From Parcubacteria group bacterium (GTDB lineage Bacteria > Patescibacteriota > Minisyncoccia > Phycocordibacterales > WO2-35-19), in assembly GCA_012514175.1 (NCBI GenBank), contig JAAZAU010000012.1:110897-174896 (forward strand): a DNA stretch of 64,000 nucleotides. The letters are read 5' to 3'. Shown piece by piece: positions 11,306 through 21,038 of the stretch; position 1 is the first letter of the stretch; every line of letters starts with the position of its first letter. A program made the position numbers and the translations under genes. The notes below the pieces were generated by a model. The model was not told the DNA's origin. It did not search any database and saw nothing but the letters and a program-made list of their open reading frames with translations.

Positions 11306-12010
11306 ATGGCAATAAAATACAATTACTTTACCCCGCTGATAATGCAAAAAATTAGTTATTGCTTATTTTGGCCATTGTATAAAGTCTTTGCCAGATTAAA
11401 AATTACCGGAAGAGAAAATTTAATAGGTTTGAGGGGTCCGGTTATCTTAGCCTCAAACCACACTAGTGAATTAGATGTAACGGCACTGCCTATGGTACTG
11501 CCGTTTTTTTCTTCTCTTTCGCCAATATATTTCATTTCAAACGCTACTAAAAAATACAGAGAGAACAAAAAATTTGGTTGGAGAAGACATATTTATGGAG
11601 GTCTTTTCTTTAAAGTTCTCGGCGGTTTTTCAAGCAATTCTGGATTCAAAGATTACGCCACAGCTTTAAAAAATCACGTTGAATTACTTACAAAGGGTCA
11701 CACTCTTTGCATATTTCCAGAAGGCAAATGCACCCTTGATGGCAACATCGGTTTAGCGCGCGGAGGTTTGGGTTATTTGGTTCACACAACTCGGGCAACC
11801 GTTGTGCCCATCGCCATAAATACATTTTTTAAATTTTCTTTTAAAGATTTCCTTTTCAGAAAAAGAAAAATTTCAATTACTGTCGGCAAACCTCTTCAAG
11901 CTGAAGACATCGTTCTCCGCGGAGTTACAAACCCCGATGTAGAAGAATATCGCTTTATGGCCAATACTGTTTTGAATAAAATTAAAGAAATAATGAATCA
12001 AAAATTATGA
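11306..12010 (+). CDS. 1-acyl-sn-glycerol-3-phosphate acyltransferase-like (PlsC family)
   Basis: 234 aa with the acyltransferase HxxxxD motif (NHTSELD) and FPEG motif. Confidence 0.75.
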   Translation: MAIKYNYFTPLIMQKISYCLFWPLYKVFARLKITGRENLIGLRGPVILASNHTSELDVTALPMVLPFFSSLSPIYFISNATKKYRENKKFGWRRHIYGGLFFKVLGGFSSNSGFKDYATALKNHVELLTKGHTLCIFPEGKCTLDGNIGLARGGLGYLVHTTRATVVPIAINTFFKFSFKDFLFRKRKISITVGKPLQAEDIVLRGVTNPDVEEYRFMANTVLNKIKEIMNQKL

Positions 12011-12063
12011 CATCCTCATCGCAGAAAAGCGATATTTCAACCTCATCTGAAAAAGAAAAGGGT

Positions 12064-12513
12064 TTATAAAAGCTTTTTTATCTTGTCCAGCGAAGAATGA
12101 ACGGCTTGTATTTCTTCGATCACGCTATCTTTTCCTTTTGACAGACCCGAATGAAGTGCAAAGATAGAATCTCTTAATTCATCAGCTAGTCTTTTTCCGT
12201 CATCAATGTTACAAGTCTCTAAAAGTTCGGCCAAAAGACCGTTAGTGGAAACGTTTAAGTCGGGTTTATTTTGGTTGGTTAGAAGCATATCTTCAACTCC
12301 AAAAATAAAATCAGCATCCTCAATAAATTCAGCAAAAGGCAATTCTTCCCTTAATCTTTCTTCTGGTAAGTTAATTACCAATTCCAGCTCGGAGATAAAA
12401 GAGAGTAGTGTTTTTTTAATTTCACTTACCTGCTCTTTTTCTTTTGTGTGCGCTAATTCGTAACCGATTTTTTTGTAATTCATAGTTAGATTATATAAAG
12501 ATAGGTGACACAA
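12064..12513 (-). CDS. hypothetical acidic helical protein; true start probably the ATG at 12483
   Basis: The track ORF begins at a TTG. The first ATG (MNYKKIGYELAH...) lies at 12483..12481 and is preceded by a TATAAT 6 nt upstream, suggesting a leaderless transcript. No family recognised. Contains LPFAEFIEDADF, a weak resemblance to graspetide leader motifs. Confidence 0.5.
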   Translation of the reverse strand: MCHLSLYNLTMNYKKIGYELAHTKEKEQVSEIKKTLLSFISELELVINLPEERLREELPFAEFIEDADFIFGVEDMLLTNQNKPDLNVSTNGLLAELLETCNIDDGKRLADELRDSIFALHSGLSKGKDSVIEEIQAVHSSLDKIKKLL

Positions 12514-12689
12514 AACAAATCTGTGTCACCTATAAAACCTTGTCAACTTTTGGAGGATAGAATCCATGGTTTCTTCAGATATACTATTATACAGCAATAT
12601 GAATTACAAAAATAAGGCGCACGAGAATATAAAAATTTTTGAAGAAATTATTGGAAAAACTTTTTTCTATAAAAATTGAATATTTTTTC

Positions 12690-12788
12690 ATGAAAATTTT
12701 TGTTACAGGAGGAACAGGTTTTATTGGTAGACGACTCGTAGATCGTCTTTCTAAAAATAAAAACAATCAAGTTTTTATTCAAAAATAA
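12690..12788 (+). pseudogene. remnant of an NAD-dependent epimerase/dehydratase N-terminus
   Basis: 32-codon ORF MKIFVTGGTGFIGRRLVDRLSKNKNNQVFIQK* carries the Rossmann GxxGxxG start of an SDR-type epimerase and then stops. No downstream continuation in any frame. Confidence 0.55.
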
Positions 12789-12807
12789 AAAGGATATTTT
12801 AGCCCTA

Positions 12808-12847
12808 ATGATAAAAAGTCCTCGCTCTCTTTGTTAGAGCGAGGACT
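12808..12847 (-). terminator. rho-independent terminator of the ATP-grasp gene
   Basis: GTCCTCGCTCT-CTTTGTT-AGAGCGAGGAC perfect 11-bp stem, followed on the minus strand by TTTTTAT. Confidence 0.75.
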
Positions 12848-12862
12848 TGAGGTGTTGTATCC

Positions 12863-13810
12863 TCACAAATTTTTTTTGAAATATTCGACAATTGAATCAC
12901 GGATTGAGCCGTCATAGAGATAGTCGACCCACCACCATGCACCACAAGTGTTTATCTCAAGAAAATAAAGGTTGCCCTCGCTGTCTTCCATAAAATCTGC
13001 TGAACAATATTCAATAGATAATCTCTTCATGAGAATACGAAGTTGGCTTGTTGTCTTGTCATCAAAGTCGCAAGGTTTGAATGACACTCCTGTCGATCCA
13101 CACCTTCGGATGTCCTCAAGCTGCTGTTCGTTTGGTTCACAACAAGCTGCAAAAACATCATCTCCAACAACTACAACACGGTAGTCTTTTTTACGAACTC
13201 GATACTCTTGATATATAACCGGGCAAAATTGAAGATCGGCATCTTTTTTCAGCCAATCTTCCGGGACAATTTTAGTGTATGCCGCCATGGTTTCTCCTGG
13301 TAAAACAACCCAGGGGGTTGCCAGATTTTTGGCGACCGTTAGGTTTTTTTCTGAAAATGCCCTAATGTCTTTTGGTGTATTGGATATCAACGTAATTGGT
13401 ATCTTTAGTCCAGCCGATTTTGCATACATAAGCTGAAGTGGTTTGTTTGCGGCATAGATTATGTTTTTTGGGCTGTTTAGCCACGGCACACCAAGCAAAT
13501 CAAATATCGCAAACTGCGCAGCCCAAAGACTTCTACGTTGCAGATTTTCTCCGACAGAAGATTTTTGGTTCAAATACGGAGGAAGCTGTTGGCACCAACC
13601 GATTCCAATATGAGAACAGTTTATCTCCCGCCCATCGCAGAAAAGCGATATTTCAGTCTTATCACCATCAATAGCTAGAGAAACCTCAGATGCGTTTTCT
13701 TCCGCATCACAATTGAAACGGAATACAGGTACGCCATCCTGGCGAAGAGCATCAATCACAGTGTCGGCTTCAAAACCACGCTGGTGCGTTACGATCAAAA
13801 CGGTTTTCAT
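12863..13810 (-). CDS. ATP-grasp ligase of the microviridin/graspetide maturase family (MdnC/MvdD-like)
   Basis: 315 aa. N-terminus MKTVLIVTHQRG...VFRFNCD parallels MdnC MTVLIVTFSRD...AFRFDTD. Conserved LQFCP and YFLEIN motifs of RiPP ATP-grasp macrocyclases. AAGGAAGG SD 6 nt upstream. Confidence 0.85.
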   Translation of the reverse strand: MKTVLIVTHQRGFEADTVIDALRQDGVPVFRFNCDAEENASEVSLAIDGDKTEISLFCDGREINCSHIGIGWCQQLPPYLNQKSSVGENLQRRSLWAAQFAIFDLLGVPWLNSPKNIIYAANKPLQLMYAKSAGLKIPITLISNTPKDIRAFSEKNLTVAKNLATPWVVLPGETMAAYTKIVPEDWLKKDADLQFCPVIYQEYRVRKKDYRVVVVGDDVFAACCEPNEQQLEDIRRCGSTGVSFKPCDFDDKTTSQLRILMKRLSIEYCSADFMEDSEGNLYFLEINTCGAWWWVDYLYDGSIRDSIVEYFKKNL

Positions 13811-13880
13811 TGGAACCTTCCTTTCTTTTTATAAAGAACGAGTTTGACTGCTTTCTTAATAATATGATATAATGGTCACT

Positions 13881-15713
13881 ATGTCAAATGAAAAAGAAAA
13901 ATGGATGCAGAGGTTTTATGACCCGACAATATTTTGTATAAATCCTGCACGTAGCACGCCACACAAAACCATTATGGTTTCCAATATTTCTGGAAAGTTC
14001 CAACTTCATTCTTATGATTTTATTACAGGATTTTCTCGCCAAATAACGAACAAGCCCCAAGGCGCGCTTTTTGGTTCTATCTCTCCAGACGGAAAGTTCA
14101 TCTATTACTTAAATGATGGTCACGGTAGTGAACATGGTCATTTTGTGCGTGTGCCTTTTGTTGGTGGACGTGCAATAGACATAACTCCGTCTCTCCCGCT
14201 TTATTATTCATACGAAGTTAGTGTAAATAATGCCTGTAACCTATTATGTTTCCATGCGTCAATAGAAGATAAAAACAAAGTATACATCGTGCCTTTTGAC
14301 ACGAAGGGGAAGCCTTTGTCGCCTTATCTTTTATACGAATCAAACAAATCTATCCAAGGATCAATAATGAGTCCAGATGGAAAGTTCACCTGTATTTCAT
14401 TGTTGTCCGGCAAAAGCATAACCTCTTCCGATATACTTGTATTTGATAACACAACACGTAAAATCGCTTATTCATTTCATAATATTAAAGGTTCGTTCTT
14501 TCCTTACGCTTTTTCTGAATATTCGTCTAAGCTGAAAGTGCTAGGTCTTTCAAATGGTTCAGGATTTTATCGCCCTATTTTATTTAATCTTAAAGAAAAA
14601 ACGTCTAAGGAAATAAATAACTCTGCACTTAAGGGCGATGTTTTTGTTTTAGGATGGATTGAAAAAGAAAGAAAAATGCTGATCTCTGATGTGCATCAAG
14701 CCCAACAGAGTTTGTTTCTTTATGATTTAGAGAAAAACATCGTCAAAAAAATCGGTCCAACTACTGGCACTTTTGATCTATTCTTTAACTCAGTCGCGGT
14801 ATTACCTGACTCATCTCTCCTTATAAAATGGCACTCTTTTGAATCTCCACCGAAAATTTTAAAACTAAAATCTCCTTCATACAAAAAAATAATTGACGTA
14901 TATACGCCTGTTCCGACGACTAAATCTAAATACATACACAAAAATGTAAAATTCCGTTCGTCAGATGGCAAAGAGGTGCAGATGTGGATTGTTCAGCCCA
15001 AGAAGAAGAAAAAAAGACCTTTTGTAATTGATATCCATGGCGGACCGCACGGGTTTGTCGGTGACGAATTTTCTCCAAAAACTCAAGCATGGCTAGATAA
15101 AGGTTTTGGATATTGCGCCGTAAATTACAGGGGTTCAATAGGGTTTGGAAAAGAATTTATGGAGGGCATATATGGCAATCCTGGAACGTGGGAAGTTGAG
15201 GATGTTGTAGCTGCCCGTAATTGGCTTGTTAAAAAAGGGCTGGCGGATTCAAAGAAGATTATTCTCTCCGGTTGGTCTTGGGGAGGCTACATAGTGCTCC
15301 TTGCTCTTGGTAAGTATCCGAATTTATGGGCTGGGGGGATAGCAGGGACACCTATTGCAGATTGTGTTCTCCAATATGAAGATGAGCCAGCATATTTTCA
15401 AGCAATTGACAGAAAGAGATTTGGAGGTACGCCAGCTCAGAAACCAAAAATATACAAGAACAGTTCTCCAACAACTTACGCCAAAAACTTCCAAGCCCCC
15501 GTTCTTATTCTGTATGGGGAAAATGATGTCCGTTGTCCGCCGAGACAAATTAAACATTTTGAGAAAATACTCAGAAAAGCGAACAAGCGCATCATTGTTA
15601 ATAAATTTTCCTCAGGTCATGCCGGTGAATTTGCTAATACTAAAATCCGTATTGCCAATACGAAAAAAGCTCTTGATTTCGCTGTTAACACAATAAAAGA
15701 AGCCTCTACCTAA
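13881..15713 (+). CDS. S9 family serine peptidase (prolyl oligopeptidase / acylaminoacyl-peptidase type), cytoplasmic
   Basis: N-terminal beta-propeller region plus C-terminal alpha/beta hydrolase with GWSWGGY nucleophile elbow, ENDVRCP Asp and SSGHAG His. No signal peptide. A TTGACT-18-TATAAT promoter ends 7 nt before ATG 13881, so the transcript is probably leaderless. The track start 13872 overlaps the -10. Confidence 0.85.
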   Translation: MSNEKEKWMQRFYDPTIFCINPARSTPHKTIMVSNISGKFQLHSYDFITGFSRQITNKPQGALFGSISPDGKFIYYLNDGHGSEHGHFVRVPFVGGRAIDITPSLPLYYSYEVSVNNACNLLCFHASIEDKNKVYIVPFDTKGKPLSPYLLYESNKSIQGSIMSPDGKFTCISLLSGKSITSSDILVFDNTTRKIAYSFHNIKGSFFPYAFSEYSSKLKVLGLSNGSGFYRPILFNLKEKTSKEINNSALKGDVFVLGWIEKERKMLISDVHQAQQSLFLYDLEKNIVKKIGPTTGTFDLFFNSVAVLPDSSLLIKWHSFESPPKILKLKSPSYKKIIDVYTPVPTTKSKYIHKNVKFRSSDGKEVQMWIVQPKKKKKRPFVIDIHGGPHGFVGDEFSPKTQAWLDKGFGYCAVNYRGSIGFGKEFMEGIYGNPGTWEVEDVVAARNWLVKKGLADSKKIILSGWSWGGYIVLLALGKYPNLWAGGIAGTPIADCVLQYEDEPAYFQAIDRKRFGGTPAQKPKIYKNSSPTTYAKNFQAPVLILYGENDVRCPPRQIKHFEKILRKANKRIIVNKFSSGHAGEFANTKIRIANTKKALDFAVNTIKEAST

Positions 15714-15737
15714 AATAGATTTGATAGAGGCTTCAAA

Positions 15738-15754
15738 GGAAGAATTATTCTTCC
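15738..15754 (+). terminator. terminator-like hairpin after the S9 peptidase gene
   Basis: GGAAGAAT-T-ATTCTTCC hairpin followed by a T-rich stretch. Confidence 0.5.
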
Positions 15755-15971
15755 TGGTTGTGCTTGACCGGACTCATCACAATCGGCTTGCGGTGAGACC
15801 ATGTCTGAGTACTCGGTGTCATAGTTAAACTGGTTGACACGGCCTTAATTGTTGTCATCATACCACAACAATTTTGAGGAAATTACGCGGAGGATTTGGT
15901 TTATAAAAACTTTTTTTCTATCTTGTGATAATATAGATAAAAACGATGGATTTAAAAATTAATTAAAAATT

Positions 15972-16724
15972 ATGACCTCTCCACAATTAAAACAAAATAA
16001 TCCAAAAGAAAAAGAATGGAAAGAAAGCATTTTCCTACGACTTTCTTACTCCTTTCTCAAGGCCACTTTAGGCACATTAATCCGTTTAATTTGGGTAAAA
16101 AAAGTAGAGGGACTAGAAAATATCCCTAAAAAAGGTTCCGTAATAATTGCTTTTAACCACCAAAGTATTTTTGATTTTCTTTGTTTTATACCAATATTAC
16201 CGAGACATATTCATTATCTATCAGCTGAAAAATTTTTCTCACATCCTGTTTGGACCCCGCTCGTCAAAATGACTGGACAAATTAAGGTAGATCGCGTCAG
16301 TCGAGATAAGAGCATCTCACACCAAACTCTTTATAAATACCTAGCTAATAATAAAGTAATTGGTATTTACCCAGAGGGGACCCGATCGCCATTTGAGAAA
16401 GAAATGCTTTATGCTTTCACAGGTGTTGCTAAATATGCAATCAACGCACAAGTGCCGGTTATACCGGTTGGCATCAAGGGCACTTATGAAATTATGTCCC
16501 GACACGACAAAAAACCTAAATTTAAAAAACTAGCAACTTTTCACATTGGCAAACCAATAGATTTTACAAAATACCAAAGCGCAAACCTCAACAAAAAAGC
16601 TTACCGAGTTTTAACAGATAGAATTATGATGGAAATTTCAAAACTTTCGGGTAAAACTTACCCATATTACGGCAAGTTTAAAACTAAAAAACCCAAAAAA
16701 ACCACGGTTGAAACAAAGTGGTAA
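15972..16724 (+). CDS. 1-acyl-sn-glycerol-3-phosphate acyltransferase-like (PlsC family), second paralog
   Basis: 250 aa with HxxxxD (NHQSIFD) and YPEGTRS motifs. Only distantly related to the 11306..12010 paralog. Confidence 0.75.
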   Translation: MTSPQLKQNNPKEKEWKESIFLRLSYSFLKATLGTLIRLIWVKKVEGLENIPKKGSVIIAFNHQSIFDFLCFIPILPRHIHYLSAEKFFSHPVWTPLVKMTGQIKVDRVSRDKSISHQTLYKYLANNKVIGIYPEGTRSPFEKEMLYAFTGVAKYAINAQVPVIPVGIKGTYEIMSRHDKKPKFKKLATFHIGKPIDFTKYQSANLNKKAYRVLTDRIMMEISKLSGKTYPYYGKFKTKKPKKTTVETKW

Positions 16725-17819: not shown

Positions 17820-18479
17820 ATGAACGAACTAGTTATTTTTGATGTAGATGGAACTATTTTAAAAGGACAGAGTCAAAAATTGTTTCTAAACTACATGTTT
17901 AAAGAAAAGTACATTTCTTTATTTGGATTTATAAAACTGAATCTCTGGTTTATTTTTTATAAGTTAGATTTTATAAAAAATCCCTTACCCGCAATAAATT
18001 ATGCTTACAGTTTTTTGAAAGGTAAAAGCATTTCTGAAATAGAAAATTTGATAAATAATTTTTTCAATTCGATTTTAAAAAAATATATTTTTAAAGAAGT
18101 AATTGAGATCATAAATGACCATTTAAAAAATGGAAGAAAAGTTATCTTAGTATCAAATTCAGTTGATATTTTAATAAAAAAAATAGCTGAATATTTAAAC
18201 GTTTCTGATTTTATATCTACTAAATTAGAAGTTCAAAACGATAGATACACAGGAAAAATAATCGGAAGCATGATGTATGGTGAAAATAAAATTAAAGCCG
18301 TAGAACAATATGCGCAAAAGAATAATATTTCATTAAATAATTCTTGGTCTTATGCAGATCACTATTCTGACATACCTTTGTTATTGAAAACGACATATGT
18401 TTTTGTGGTTAACCCATCAAAAAAATTACAACAAATAGCTACAGAAAAAAATTGGCAAGTGTTACAATTTAACATATGA
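17820..18479 (+). CDS. HAD-IB family hydrolase (phosphoserine phosphatase-like)
   Basis: 219 aa with DxDGT motif I (VIFDVDGTILKG) and HAD-IB cap region. Preceded by a TGGTATAAT extended -10. Confidence 0.75.
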   Translation: MNELVIFDVDGTILKGQSQKLFLNYMFKEKYISLFGFIKLNLWFIFYKLDFIKNPLPAINYAYSFLKGKSISEIENLINNFFNSILKKYIFKEVIEIINDHLKNGRKVILVSNSVDILIKKIAEYLNVSDFISTKLEVQNDRYTGKIIGSMMYGENKIKAVEQYAQKNNISLNNSWSYADHYSDIPLLLKTTYVFVVNPSKKLQQIATEKNWQVLQFNI

Positions 18480-20141: not shown

Positions 20142-21038
20142 TTGTATGATGCAACGTATATGCTAAAAAATAAATGTTTTGAATTTCTATCCTGTCCTAT
20201 AGATGGAAGCGACATGGTCTCTTTAGGAAAAAGTGTTTGTTGTGTAAATAAACACTCTTTTGACGTATCAAAAGAAGGATATATAAATATGCTAACGAGC
20301 GATAAACGCTTCAAACAGAAAATAGGTGACGTAAAAGATATGCTACTAGCAAGGTCTAATTTTCTACAAAGCGGATACTACAATTTTCTTTCAGAAGAAA
20401 TAAATAAAATAGCAATAAGATATTTACAAAATAATAACAATAAAGATGGCTGTATTTTAGAAGTAGGTTGTGGCACTGCTTTTTATCTAAAAAGATTAAA
20501 AGACAACATAGATAATGATTTAAAAAAAGAATTTTGCTATTTTGGGACTGATATATCAAAAGAAGCAATCAAAATCTCAGCAAAAAAATATAAAGACATA
20601 AATTTCATAGTTGCAGATACTTACTTTAAAATTCCTATAAAAAACAAAACTGTAAAAATTATTTTAAATATATTTTCTCCCAGAAATCCGGAAGAATTTT
20701 CAAGATTATTAGACGATAAAGGGATTATAATAACAGTGATTCCAAACGAAAATCATCTTAACGAACTTATAGAAAAATTCGGACTAGTAAAAGTCGAACA
20801 AGAAAAGAAAAAACATCTAATGGACGCTCTTGATGGTCAATTTGACAAAATAGAAGACTATAATTTTACGAAGAAAATTTCTTTAAAATCTAATTCTATC
20901 ATAGACTTAATTAAAATGGGACCAAGCTATAAATGTCTAAATGATAAAAAAATAATAAACATAAAAAATATGAACAAAAATTTATTAGAAGTAACTGCTT
21001 CTTTCAATATCTTAGTTTTTGTTTCAAAAAGCCGGTAA
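20142..21038 (+). CDS. RlmA-like 23S rRNA (guanine-N1) methyltransferase
   Basis: 298 aa. N-terminal Zn-ribbon CPIDGS...CCVNKHSFDVSKEGYINML matches the RlmA CPxC...HxFDxAKEGYVNLL pattern. Class I SAM motif LEVGCGTAFY. Confidence 0.75.
   Translation: MYDATYMLKNKCFEFLSCPIDGSDMVSLGKSVCCVNKHSFDVSKEGYINMLTSDKRFKQKIGDVKDMLLARSNFLQSGYYNFLSEEINKIAIRYLQNNNNKDGCILEVGCGTAFYLKRLKDNIDNDLKKEFCYFGTDISKEAIKISAKKYKDINFIVADTYFKIPIKNKTVKIILNIFSPRNPEEFSRLLDDKGIIITVIPNENHLNELIEKFGLVKVEQEKKKHLMDALDGQFDKIEDYNFTKKISLKSNSIIDLIKMGPSYKCLNDKKIINIKNMNKNLLEVTASFNILVFVSKSR

Follow-up and report, generated by a model that had tools for sequence, protein, structure and literature searches.

Graspetide (omega-ester/omega-amide RiPP) loci in genomes of the Candidate Phyla Radiation (CPR) were described by Makarova et al. 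(2022; PMC8939145). In the part of that study drawn on here, the ATP-grasp ligases form branches 1 and 2, many branch 2 precursors are given as unidentified, and for that branch a peptidase of the alpha/beta-hydrolase type is raised as a possibility. Its supplementary file 12, to the extent used here, places a Y-D-x-x-x-Q-(T)-W box at the end of the leader in Actinobacterial 'ATP-grasp target RiPP' precursors. Characterised relatives of this SAV_5884 type include prunipeptin (PruB) and graspimiditides such as fuscimiditide. Corallotide, of graspetide group 15, contains a Lys9-Asp13 isopeptide with Lys-x3-Asp (i, i+4) spacing (PMC13097080). In a class III lanthipeptide cluster, the leader is removed by the S9 prolyl oligopeptidase FlaP, which cuts after Pro and favours cyclised substrate (PMC10885120).

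The DNA analysed here (the window) is a 64,000-nucleotide stretch from a Parcubacteria group bacterium, in which an earlier, sequence-only reading had flagged the interval 12011-15971. This interval very probably holds a graspetide cassette with its precursor at 15745..15861. The best explanation of the interval as a whole is likely to be a three-gene graspetide cassette typical of one clade of the ultra-small CPR/Patescibacteria. By sequence comparison, dozens of related loci carry homologues of all three genes, similarly linked. The features are as follows.

12816..12848, minus strand: intrinsic terminator 3' of the ligase gene (13-bp stem with 7 G-C pairs, then a T-run)
12863..13810, minus strand: ATP-grasp peptide macrocyclase (graspetide synthetase), 315 aa; profile, PDB and fold matches
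13811..13880, between the divergent genes: promoter region of 70 nt, two sigma-70-like promoters matching 11/12 each in a consensus scan
13844-13873, plus strand: candidate S9 promoter, TTGACT-18-TATAAT; consensus match only
13887-13859, minus strand: candidate ligase promoter, TTGACA-17-TATTAT; consensus match only
13881..15713, plus strand: cytoplasmic S9 serine oligopeptidase, beta-propeller plus alpha/beta-hydrolase, 610 aa; PF00326 6e-41
15699-15734: hairpin overlapping the S9 stop, between the convergent S9 and precursor genes
15737-15755: hairpin overlapping the precursor stop, between the same two genes
15745..15861, minus strand: graspetide precursor gene, 38 codons plus stop, MMTTIKAVSTSLTMTPSTQTWSHRKPIVMSPVKHNQEE; homologous ORFs, linkage and selection on the core

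The 315-aa ORF had been proposed to encode an MdnC/MvdD-type RiPP macrocyclase, and both the ORF and the assignment were borne out. The best profile was NCBIfam TIGR04187 over the full length (1.2e-46), followed by MvdC (9e-41) and MvdD (1e-35), far ahead of the RimK family (1e-12). Sequence matches in the PDB were to MdnC/MdnB/CdnC/AMdnB (∼1e-24), and the top 32 Foldseek matches of the AF2 model (pLDDT 88) were all graspetide ligases (TM ≤0.84). Every curated NCBIfam cut-off lies above the score of the ligase, which counts against a graspetide assignment. Profile, sequence and predicted fold nonetheless agree on a graspetide macrocyclase of the MdnC/CdnC/PruB type. A housekeeping enzyme of the RimK/glutathione-synthetase type was also considered for this ORF and was rejected on the graspetide profiles and the PDB and fold matches.

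No classical precursor had appeared obvious in the sequence-only reading. One nonetheless lies in cis within the flagged interval, convergent with the S9 gene, and nearly all annotation pipelines had also missed it; one JGI annotation calls it from the second ATG (15858; 37 aa, P0186). It matched no NCBIfam or Pfam model. It has ∼100 homologues (database homologues numbered 93), and homologous small ORFs adjoin the S9 or ligase gene in ∼50 loci. The family layout is an N-terminal amphipathic leader helix (h-L-x-x-L-F-E), a Y-D-x-x-T-Q-T-W box and a fixed-length tail (S-H-R onward), with box and tail making up a fixed 25-residue C-terminal module, Y-D-x-x-T-Q-T-W-S-H-R-x4-M-S-P-x-K-x3-E-x, which is present in the window peptide. 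P-8, K-6 and E-2 are each invariant (97/97), as is S/T/C-9 (97/97), and T/S-19 is kept in 96/97; the invariant Glu is always followed by exactly one residue, which varies. The invariance of the Pro, the Lys and the penultimate Glu predicts one ring, closed onto this Glu, a prediction that we hold with fair confidence.

The precursor in cis bears directly on the proposal that the genes form a horizontally acquired islet whose ligase modifies a 149-aa protein, the product of a 37-codon ORF, or a substrate encoded elsewhere, a proposal that is now largely refuted and very improbable. The acidic 149-aa ORF (12064..12513) exists, although it probably encodes 139 aa from a start at 12483, and its LPFAEFIE segment superficially resembles h-h-x-x-h-h-E leader helices. 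It was rejected as a precursor because it belongs to a full-length protein family of its own (∼135-140 aa; 34 representative clusters) that no other ligase locus carries; the leader HMM gave no scoring match to it. The 37-codon ORF (12566..12679) was rejected as well, having neither a homologue nor a family match.

As the sequence-only reading had it, plsC-type acyltransferase genes lie on both flanks (PF01553), although they are only 22% identical to each other. The junction of plsC1 stop and plsC2 start is duplicated over 26 nt on the two sides of the block, which suggests an earlier insertion or re-insertion of the 3.96 kb between plsC genes that had been neighbours. The epimerase remnant stops matching PF01370 after position 24 and is a 32-aa stub in other assemblies. 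The repeat scar at 12017-12047 copies ligase codons 49-58 (28/31 bases, versus ≤24/31 in 100 shuffles). The junction duplication and the ligase-fragment scar show local rearrangement. However, the claim that both enzyme genes are richer in G+C than the flanking core was not upheld, as the composition of the cassette is near normal: the ligase gene (GC 0.424, z 1.5; GC3 z 2.0) sits at the upper edge of a range spanned by other genes in the window, and the S9 gene is ordinary (0.384, z 0.5). The cassette is moreover identical in at least 24 independent assemblies of the window species and lies near dnaK-dnaJ in four lineages. The case for an accessory islet, and for foreign, G+C-rich DNA, is weak.

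With both ligase and precursor in hand, the locus can be set against the described systems. TIGR04187 being the best profile of the ligase, PruB (PDB 9bou) being among its top fold matches, and the box shared with the window precursor family all recall the Actinobacterial SAV_5884 type; recognisable members of the precursor family even lie upstream of ligases in Phytoactinopolyspora and Blastococcus. However, the ligase scores 159 bits against a TIGR04187 cut-off of 350, the precursor escapes the NCBIfam and Pfam models, the core has a fixed, very short length and a single invariant acid instead of being long and Thr/Ser...Asp/Glu-rich, and the family is mainly found in CPR genomes with a dedicated S9 (or DUF7689) partner. 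The microviridin system (MdnA/MdnB/MdnC) shares the ligase fold and pre-ATP-grasp domain (MdnC 5ig9, 1.8e-24, TM ∼0.8), and its PFFARFL motif resembles the family leader helix. It differs in having two ligases instead of one, and the window cassette lacks the TxKxPSDx(E/D)(D/E) core and the GNAT and ABC-transporter genes. With at most one side-chain acceptor in the window family, the tricyclic microviridin cage cannot form. The loci of Makarova et al. likewise place graspetide ligases in CPR genomes, but the cores (TxxxTx(6-10)Dx(1-4)D) and partners (cluster 23 protein, TPR, zincins, SPASM, UbiE) given in the part consulted do not fit, and neither the taxa nor the motifs of the window family were found in that part of its supplements (PMC8939145).

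The S9 ORF was confirmed at 13881..15713, the start used by gene callers, with an alternative in-frame ATG at 13872 that would give 613 aa. As had been claimed, it appears to lack a signal peptide: its N-terminus has no hydrophobic segment, and the AF2 model (pLDDT 91.5) begins with a helix followed by strands. The family assignment to S9 also holds, but by sequence and model the enzyme is closest to S9C acylaminoacyl peptidases (1ve6 and others in the PDB), not to the S9A prolyl oligopeptidases that had been named. The Ser (GWSWG)/Asp/His triad is kept in 23/23 family members. The nearest relatives of known structure are acylaminoacyl or carboxy-peptidases; these are exopeptidase-like, which counts against a role as leader peptidase.

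S9 is linked to the ligase in ∼40 loci across CPR lineages, whose ligases are essentially one clade with two stable arrangements. Ligase/S9 identities fall in parallel (66/72, 58/56, 52/47, 48/36 and 43/29%). The S9-less sister loci carry a Cys/His protein (DUF7689) in the slot by the ligase, and the two never occur together in that slot. This mutual exclusivity suggests that the accessory gene is a maturation hydrolase; for DUF7689 an invariant Cys/His/His/Asp pattern points to the same putative activity. It is improbable that S9 is a housekeeping cytoplasmic oligopeptidase, a chance neighbour in gene-dense CPR genomes of a unit made up of precursor and ligase. Many loci, Actinobacteria included, do have precursor and ligase without S9, and S9 relatives of ≤37% identity in other phyla stand alone (3/3 of the closest relatives outside CPR that were checked). 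However, chance does not readily account for adjacency maintained from 43% to 100% ligase identity in two orientations and at least five genomic neighbourhoods, for the position of S9 always between ligase and precursor, for the sharp step in S9 identity that sets the ligase-linked clade (≥43%) apart from the rest (≤37%), or for the exclusivity with DUF7689.

We infer ring formation, ring partners and cleavage site from sequence. The ligase would dock on the leader and TQTW box, phosphorylate the gamma-carboxylate of the penultimate Glu, the sole invariant acidic residue, and then join that residue in a single ring to one of three invariant nucleophiles. The first candidate is the Lys four residues upstream, by analogy with corallotide, whose Lys-x3-Asp spacing is that of the invariant K-x3-E; corallotide, known only from Corallococcus, differs in its large multi-repeat precursor, in having a 2OG oxygenase and a partner protein, and in a ligase not closely related to that of the window. 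The Ser/Thr/Cys seven residues upstream of the Glu or the Thr of QTW might serve instead. S9, with a propeller admitting only short peptides, would then remove the leader, probably at a conserved proline (PETP, YDP), and DUF7689 would appear to take this role where S9 is missing. Against this cleavage site, not every S9-linked locus has a Pro ahead of the TQTW box. FlaP offers a precedent for an S9-family oligopeptidase in a RiPP cluster, but it is an S9A enzyme acting on another RiPP class, and the role of the S9C-like window enzyme is putative. The suggestion that the peptidase serves as leader protease survives in the broader form of a maturation peptidase, our best reading of S9, to which we give an even chance.

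S9 could be tied to the peptide in another way, a possibility that we regard as unlikely. If the graspetide inhibits proteases, S9 could be its target or its self-resistance partner. S9 could instead be an esterase-isopeptidase that breaks down or recycles the peptide, as Atxe2 does with lasso peptides, a carboxypeptidase trimming the single residue after the Glu, or a transpeptidase of the POPB/PCY1 kind using the two prolines bracketing STQTWSHRxxxxMSP. Observations in favour of such readings are a weak NCBIfam match to Atxe2 isopeptidase (8.6e-6, catalytic region only), an S9 carboxypeptidase as best fold match with PCY1 among the top matches, the exactly one variable residue after the Glu, and P-x14-S-P in most S9-linked precursors. 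However, a shared hydrolytic maturation step explains the exclusivity with DUF7689 more simply; several S9-linked lineages lack the first Pro, ahead of the TQTW box (YDQ, YDR and Peribacteria variants); cyclising at S-P would leave the invariant Lys and Glu in the discarded follower; and the intact triad is that of an enzyme rather than a decoy.

The window copy itself is unusual. Among ∼100 homologues its peptide has the shortest leader, and at most one other likewise lacks a recognisable leader helix. The core aligns at the DNA level with relatives, whereas the leader and Shine-Dalgarno do not, and the window precursor has no clear Shine-Dalgarno of its own: the relatives' start region (GGGAGGTAAAC-ATG) is replaced by non-aligning sequence, and no frame holds a relic of the leader. 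Loss of the leader helix and of a clear Shine-Dalgarno would normally abolish recognition in characterised graspetide systems. The cassette here may therefore be a decaying relic, with a precursor no longer made or recognised and enzymes fading or re-used, although we consider this doubtful. The epimerase stub, scar and duplicated junction are further marks of decay or rearrangement in the patch, and copies elsewhere have decayed (ligase frameshift in L018, precursor stop in L044). However, the core ORF is intact and under strong purifying selection, with dN/dS ∼0.06-0.13 at saturated dS, and it is identical across independent assemblies; both enzymes are fully constrained, with 0/32 (ligase) and 0/50 (S9) departures from family-invariant positions.

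The promoter-like and terminator elements, which are intact, also speak against decay. Divergent promoters had been expected, within 60 bp rather than the actual 70. On the S9 side, 7 nt separate the end of the -10 box from ATG 13881, which makes a leaderless S9 mRNA probable; the ligase has a AAGGAAGG Shine-Dalgarno. The two hairpins in 15699..15755 are probable bidirectional terminators.

We lean slightly towards a functional window copy. The pairing of ATP-grasp ligase and S9 peptidase, already noted as atypical of described graspetide architectures, is real, conserved and apparently undescribed, as no description was found in the literature searched. Given the selected core and the two intact enzymes, the cassette is probably still active on a short-leader substrate, and its product is most likely a small ring-closed ribosomal peptide.

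All of the open reading frames (ORFs) described in the sequence-only reading were present: the ligase gene, a divergent S9 peptidase gene, the flanking plsC genes, and a 149-aa ORF on the minus strand. The main features of the region are as follows, including a precursor ORF that was added in this analysis.

11306..12010, plsC1, acyltransferase gene (PF01553), left of the flagged 3.96-kb block
12863..13810, minus strand, ATP-grasp ligase, 315 aa
13872/13881..15713, plus strand, S9 peptidase, divergent to the ligase
15745..15861, minus strand, precursor ORF, 38 codons, MMTTIKAVSTSLTMTPSTQTWSHRKPIVMSPVKHNQEE
15972..16724, plsC2, acyltransferase gene (PF01553), right of the block

The ligase had been proposed to be a graspetide-type (MdnC/MvdD) enzyme, and profile, structure-sequence, and fold comparisons all agreed with this assignment. 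Over its full length the protein matched the NCBIfam models TIGR04187 (SAV_5884 family; 1.2e-46), MvdC (TIGR04185; 9e-41), and MvdD (TIGR04184; 1e-35), and the pre-ATP-grasp domain PF21068 was also detected (1.9e-5). Scores of 159, 140, and 123 bits were below the curated cutoffs for these three models (350, 425, and 475, respectively), and as judged from its sequence the enzyme is a relative of these subfamilies rather than a member of any of them. The nearest solved structures by sequence were MdnC, MdnB, CdnC, and AMdnB (∼1e-24), followed by 9bou and PsnB. When the AlphaFold2 model (pLDDT 88, pTM 0.87) was compared to the PDB with Foldseek, the best 32 matches were all graspetide macrocyclases (CdnC, 6e-27, TM 0.84; MdnC; AMdnB; PruB; MdnB; PsnB). 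A housekeeping ATP-grasp enzyme of the RimK, LysX, or glutathione synthetase type was rejected in each comparison: the RimK family reached only 1e-12 in NCBIfam versus 1e-46, RimK reached 0.005 versus 1e-24 among PDB sequences, and ArgX, LysX, and RimK ranked after the graspetide macrocyclases in Foldseek, at ∼1e-14 versus 6e-27. Because sequence profiles and Foldseek both ranked the macrocyclases higher, the placement with RimK or glutathione synthetase that had been named as evidence against a graspetide ligase was not found. Homologues of the ligase were numerous and came mostly from CPR/Parcubacteria metagenomes.

The sequence-only reading had seen no obvious classical precursor, but a search within the flagged interval recovered a conserved one encoded in cis. 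Contigs of Ryanbacteria and Vogelbacteria have an S9 gene after the ligase gene and, convergent to this peptidase gene, a 51-codon ORF; the encoded peptides end in ...YDPSTQTWSHRDAILMSPTKHNQEH and ...YDPITQTWSHRNARLMSPVKHNQEH. The 38-codon ORF at 15745..15861 (minus strand) occupies the equivalent position, 31 nt past the S9 stop codon. Nine such peptides were combined into a profile, which found a match in almost all of the 67 related loci of sufficient length, and profile searching across 5.8 billion proteins yielded 93 further homologues, all annotated as hypothetical and without a Pfam domain; one of these (P0186) is the precursor peptide of the window species itself. Six precursors were compared with Pfam and NCBIfam, and no model matched, even at E values up to 10. 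Nearly all gene callers miss the precursor gene, and none of four assemblies of the window species had it annotated.

The family carries a conserved leader and a core with Thr, Ser, and Lys donors and a Glu acceptor. Among 97 distinct C-terminal tails, numbered back from the C terminus, the length of the C-terminal module was fixed, Pro(-8), Lys(-6), and Glu(-2) were invariant, and Glu(-2) was followed by one variable residue, never more or fewer. Position -9 was Ser, Thr, or Cys in every tail, and position -19 was Thr or Ser in 96. Arg(-15), His(-16), and Tyr(-25) were each kept in 93 to 95 tails, and an Asp followed the Tyr in only 66. The family motif combines a leader, h-L-x-x-L-F-E, with the core SHRx4MSPxKx3Ex; upstream of a Y-D-x-x-T-Q-T-W box the leaders form the amphipathic helix motif (S/P)-h-L-x-x-L-F-E. 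One orthologous precursor with a full leader is MQNQQGQTSLLNRLFEPVPETPAVELGQYDPSTQTWSHRNSIVMSPVKHCQEE. The G+C content of the window ORF (0.46; GC3, 0.56) is higher than the window gene mean (0.37; GC3, 0.29), and the precursor region is also G+C-rich in relatives from ∼35% GC genomes; constraint at the codon or RNA level is a candidate cause. A structured RNA in the G+C-rich spacer (15714..15971) was considered and rejected, as neither Rfam nor ARAGORN gave a match and the precursor ORF accounts for the G+C content.

The two weak precursor candidates put forward earlier did not hold up. The 149-aa ORF, also considered as a trans-leader, belongs to a separate family of ∼139-aa proteins (34 representative clusters with full-length matches) that is absent at all other ligase loci and was missed by the leader hidden Markov model; searches against Pfam, NCBIfam, and PHROG gave no match. 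Just upstream of its likely start codon (ATG 12483, giving a 139-aa gene) is a 14-bp perfect hairpin at 12501-12533 (ATAGGTGACACA...TGTGTCACCTAT). The 37-codon ORF at 12566..12679 has a GGAGGA Shine-Dalgarno sequence and neither homologues nor a family match, and it lies in a decayed stretch just upstream of an epimerase stub. This NAD-dependent epimerase/dehydratase stub (12690-12788, within an ORF listed as 12639-12788) encodes 32 aa, MKIFVTGGTGFIGRRLVDRL..., and ends in a stop codon; its match to PF01370 covers just positions 1 to 24, in agreement with the gene remnant described previously.

The window precursor has a complete core (T, S, K, and E are all present) and lacks the leader helix. 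In its closest relatives (ligase 66% and S9 72% identical) the precursor is MQNQQGQTSLLNRLFEPVPETPAVELGQYDPSTQTW..., with GGGAGG upstream. The DNA could be aligned with these relatives from the Pro codon before STQTW through the stop codon; upstream of that codon the window sequence is A+T-rich and unalignable, with no Shine-Dalgarno sequence and no leader helix. No leader relic was detectable in any frame or across the 64 kb, and upstream of the precursor ORF, where a frameshifted relic was sought, frame 0 (...PPRNFLKIVVV and two stops) resembled LLNRLFEPV only vaguely and not significantly. The precursor region did not differ among four independent assemblies (of at least 24 contigs with the ligase), and the loss of the leader is thus not an assembly artifact. 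Differences between the window core and its closest relatives were mostly synonymous (pS, 0.6 to 0.96; dN, 0.08 to 0.19 in most pairs; dN/dS, ∼0.06 to 0.13), and the core has therefore been maintained as coding sequence. None of the 32 family-invariant columns of the ligase and none of the 50 of the S9 peptidase were altered in the window species. The system may still be operating with a short-leader peptide as its substrate. Alternatively, a second precursor may be encoded outside the window; none was found elsewhere within the 64 kb. It is also possible that the leader was lost too recently for the enzymes to have relaxed. Damaged genes were seen at two related loci and may be pseudogenes or assembly errors. 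The ligase gene at L018:6001-6920 (Peribacteria) is frameshifted near codon 209 and so acquires several in-frame TAG stops, which arise from the frameshift and not from an alternative genetic code, and in the precursor gene at L044:2934-3152 a stop codon replaces the Gln of TQTW.

Assignment of the neighboring protein to the S9 peptidases was borne out by the PF00326 match (6e-41), the predicted beta-propeller and alpha/beta-hydrolase domains, and a catalytic triad (Ser in an invariant GWSWG, Asp, and His) that was kept in 23 of 23 distinct family members. Its nearest relatives appear to be S9C acylaminoacyl peptidases, which were the closest solved relatives by sequence (1ve6, 7.6e-28) and, together with an S9 carboxypeptidase, gave the best superpositions on the model (pLDDT 91.5; TM 0.81 to 0.86 for acylaminoacyl peptidases). 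Prolyl oligopeptidases and PCY1, which are of the post-proline S9A type that also includes FlaP and POPB, were slightly behind (TM 0.8 to 0.86 over acylaminoacyl peptidases and prolyl oligopeptidases). The 70-nt spacer between the divergent ligase and S9 genes contains two sigma-70-like promoters at 11 of 12 consensus matches. The plus-strand -10 box ends 7 nt ahead of ATG 13881, which suggests that the S9 mRNA is leaderless. This position, and the choice of the same ATG by gene callers in other assemblies (610 aa), agree with the start coordinate assigned earlier.

In a ligase tree the S9-linked loci fell essentially into a single clade, in which two arrangements are stable, ligase>S9> <precursor and <ligase S9> <precursor, the latter being the window type, and the identities of ligase and S9 fell in parallel across loci. 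Identities of S9 homologues dropped in a step, from at least 43% (∼75 clusters) to 37% or less, and three of three members checked in the distant set (Chloroflexota and others) were stand-alone genes. On the basis of this single clade, the identity step, and the stand-alone distant genes, it seems that a widespread cytoplasmic S9 lineage was recruited once. Full-length S9 relatives (33% identity; P0302 to P0304) are annotated on Mb-scale scaffolds of the bdelloid rotifers Adineta vaga and A. steineri, and may reflect horizontal transfer into rotifers.

Clustering of the flanking ORFs across 34 nonredundant loci placed an S9 gene at 18. No conserved transporter, immunity gene, or second tailoring enzyme was found among the flanking ORFs of these loci; the only conserved neighbors were S9 and a ∼170-aa protein that lies directly beside the ligase in eight S9-less loci (L011, L013, L034, L035, L042, L048, L051, and L054; e.g., L013:7022-7540 and L042:6079-6591). 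The latter matches DUF7689 (27 to 33 bits versus a gathering score of 22.6) and has an invariant Cys (YNCF), His, SKWxWGPL, His, and Asp; no match was found among PDB sequences. It and S9 never occurred at one locus. That two unrelated proteins with nucleophile/His signatures alternate beside the ligase is the best argument available for a hydrolytic maturation step encoded in this slot. The DUF7689 protein may be a papain-like hydrolase.

The cassette had been viewed as an inserted accessory islet, and this view was weakly supported. A 26-nt direct repeat (11989-12014 and 15954-15979; 22/26 matches, a level reached in 0 of 60 Markov simulations) lies at either edge of the 3.96-kb block, with the plsC1 stop codon in the left copy and the plsC2 start codon in the right copy (...AAAAATTATGAC...). 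A second direct repeat pair (12061-12079 and 15898-15916) also exceeded Markov chain simulations. The 26-nt repeat resembles a duplicated junction at which the plsC genes, once adjacent, shared an ATGA stop/start overlap, and an old insertion or reinsertion between them is therefore plausible; the two plsC genes are only 22% identical. However, four lineages (the window, the L005 and L038 groups of related loci, and the L010 group, which also has plsC1) have the cassette close to dnaK-dnaJ, with different intervening genes, and the cassette is therefore not a strain-specific acquisition. The impression that both genes are G+C-richer than their surroundings was weak: compared to a window gene mean of 0.367 (standard deviation, 0.037), the ligase gene (0.424; z, 1.5; GC3 z, 2.0) is within the window range and is equaled by genes at 27 to 29 kb, and the S9 gene (0.384; z, 0.5) is ordinary. 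Two very-low-G+C genes, at 17820-18479 (a HAD-family hydrolase; 0.242; z, -3.3) and 20142-21038 (0.267; z, -2.7), deviate far more in composition than the cassette.

The repeat scar reported within the block was confirmed as a 31-nt copy of ligase codons 49 to 58 (13633-13663) in the spacer just past the plsC1 stop codon (12017-12047), with 28/31 matches and a 23-nt exact run, compared to at most 24/31 in shuffled sequences. A larger degraded second ligase copy around it was sought at relaxed thresholds and rejected. This scar, the epimerase stub, and the 26-nt repeat are signs of rearrangement in the window. In the Ryanbacteria contig (L001/L002, from position 14320), a giant toxin-like gene of the RHS/YD-repeat/SpvB type (>2,100 aa) lies ∼4 kb from the graspetide cassette.

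Microviridin leaders contain a PFFARFL recognition helix, which the amphipathic leader helix of the CPR family resembles; however, the window has neither PFFARFL nor a TxKxPSDx(E/D)(D/E) core, and one ligase compared to the two of microviridin. Among the precursors collected by Makarova et al. 2022, Actinobacterial peptides of the SAV_5884 type, labeled "putative ATP-grasp target RiPP" (...PGDYDEQSQTWSFPDG..., ...GHYDPVSQTWRGADG...), have by inspection a YDxxxQ box in common with the Y-D-x-x-T-Q-T-W box of the CPR family (PMC8939145). There the leader terminates with the box, and long cores rich in Thr/Ser and Asp/Glu come after it (PMC8939145), a core architecture unlike that of the CPR family. 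Peptides with the full module were also found upstream of distant ligases (∼30% identity) in Phytoactinopolyspora and Blastococcus. The common box, these full modules, and the leader helix suggest that the precursor family is a short-core offshoot of SAV_5884-type graspetides, as far as sequence comparison can place it. Graspetides in CPR genomes have already been reported (PMC8939145), and protease neighbors are known for some graspetide groups (PMC13097080). As far as the accessible parts of the 2022 study describe them, its CPR ATP-grasp branches 1 and 2 differ in having the core TxxxTx(6-10)Dx(1-4)D, absent from the window family, and apparently also a cluster 23 protein, whereas the sole conserved neighbors here are S9 or DUF7689. 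In the accessible graspetide literature and supplements, neither the precursor motif nor these taxa were mentioned, and PF00326 was not listed among co-occurring families. Within those sources graspetides, including those of CPR, are known, and no earlier description of this precursor motif or of the PF00326 pairing was found.

By analogy with characterized systems, we infer a mechanism and its possible ring partners. The ligase would bind the leader and TQTW box of the precursor and activate Glu(-2), the only invariant carboxylate, as an acyl phosphate, and an invariant nucleophile would then close a single ring onto it. Lys(-6) is the favored partner because the documented K-x3-D isopeptide ring of corallotide has equal spacing (PMC13097080); alternatives would be Ser/Thr/Cys(-9), where every substitution keeps a nucleophile, or Thr(-19). 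The propeller-gated S9 enzyme would afterwards trim the leader. The conserved prolines (PETP, YDP) would be fitting cleavage sites, since FlaP, a precedent from a lanthipeptide pathway, cleaves the leader after Pro with a preference for cyclized substrate (PMC10885120). However, Pro is not universal in the family, and the closest kin of the S9 enzyme are exopeptidase-like.

To our knowledge, the native leader peptidases of most graspetides have not been identified; those of the graspimiditides are likewise undetermined (PMC12291112). A protease gene locked between ligase and precursor genes, and swapped for a Cys/His protein in sister lineages, provides two concrete leader peptidase candidates. 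We propose, as a tentative and on balance rather unlikely whole, that CPR bacteria widely carry a previously undescribed, minimal graspetide family with a single ring and a dedicated S9C-type or DUF7689 maturation hydrolase, and that the window species relies on a leader-truncated precursor. In that species the ligase would recognize the core-proximal TQTWSHR box instead of an N-terminal leader helix. If this proposal is true, SAV_5884-type graspetides would gain their first native leader-processing enzymes. As its substrate is very small, of fixed length, and has only one acceptor residue, the family, which includes a natural short-leader variant, would be an attractive minimal model for ATP-grasp macrocyclization. 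It would also add a defined, conserved secondary-metabolite-like function to CPR/Parcubacteria, which, according to the 2022 survey, have tiny genomes, few such systems, and poorly understood host interactions (PMC8939145).
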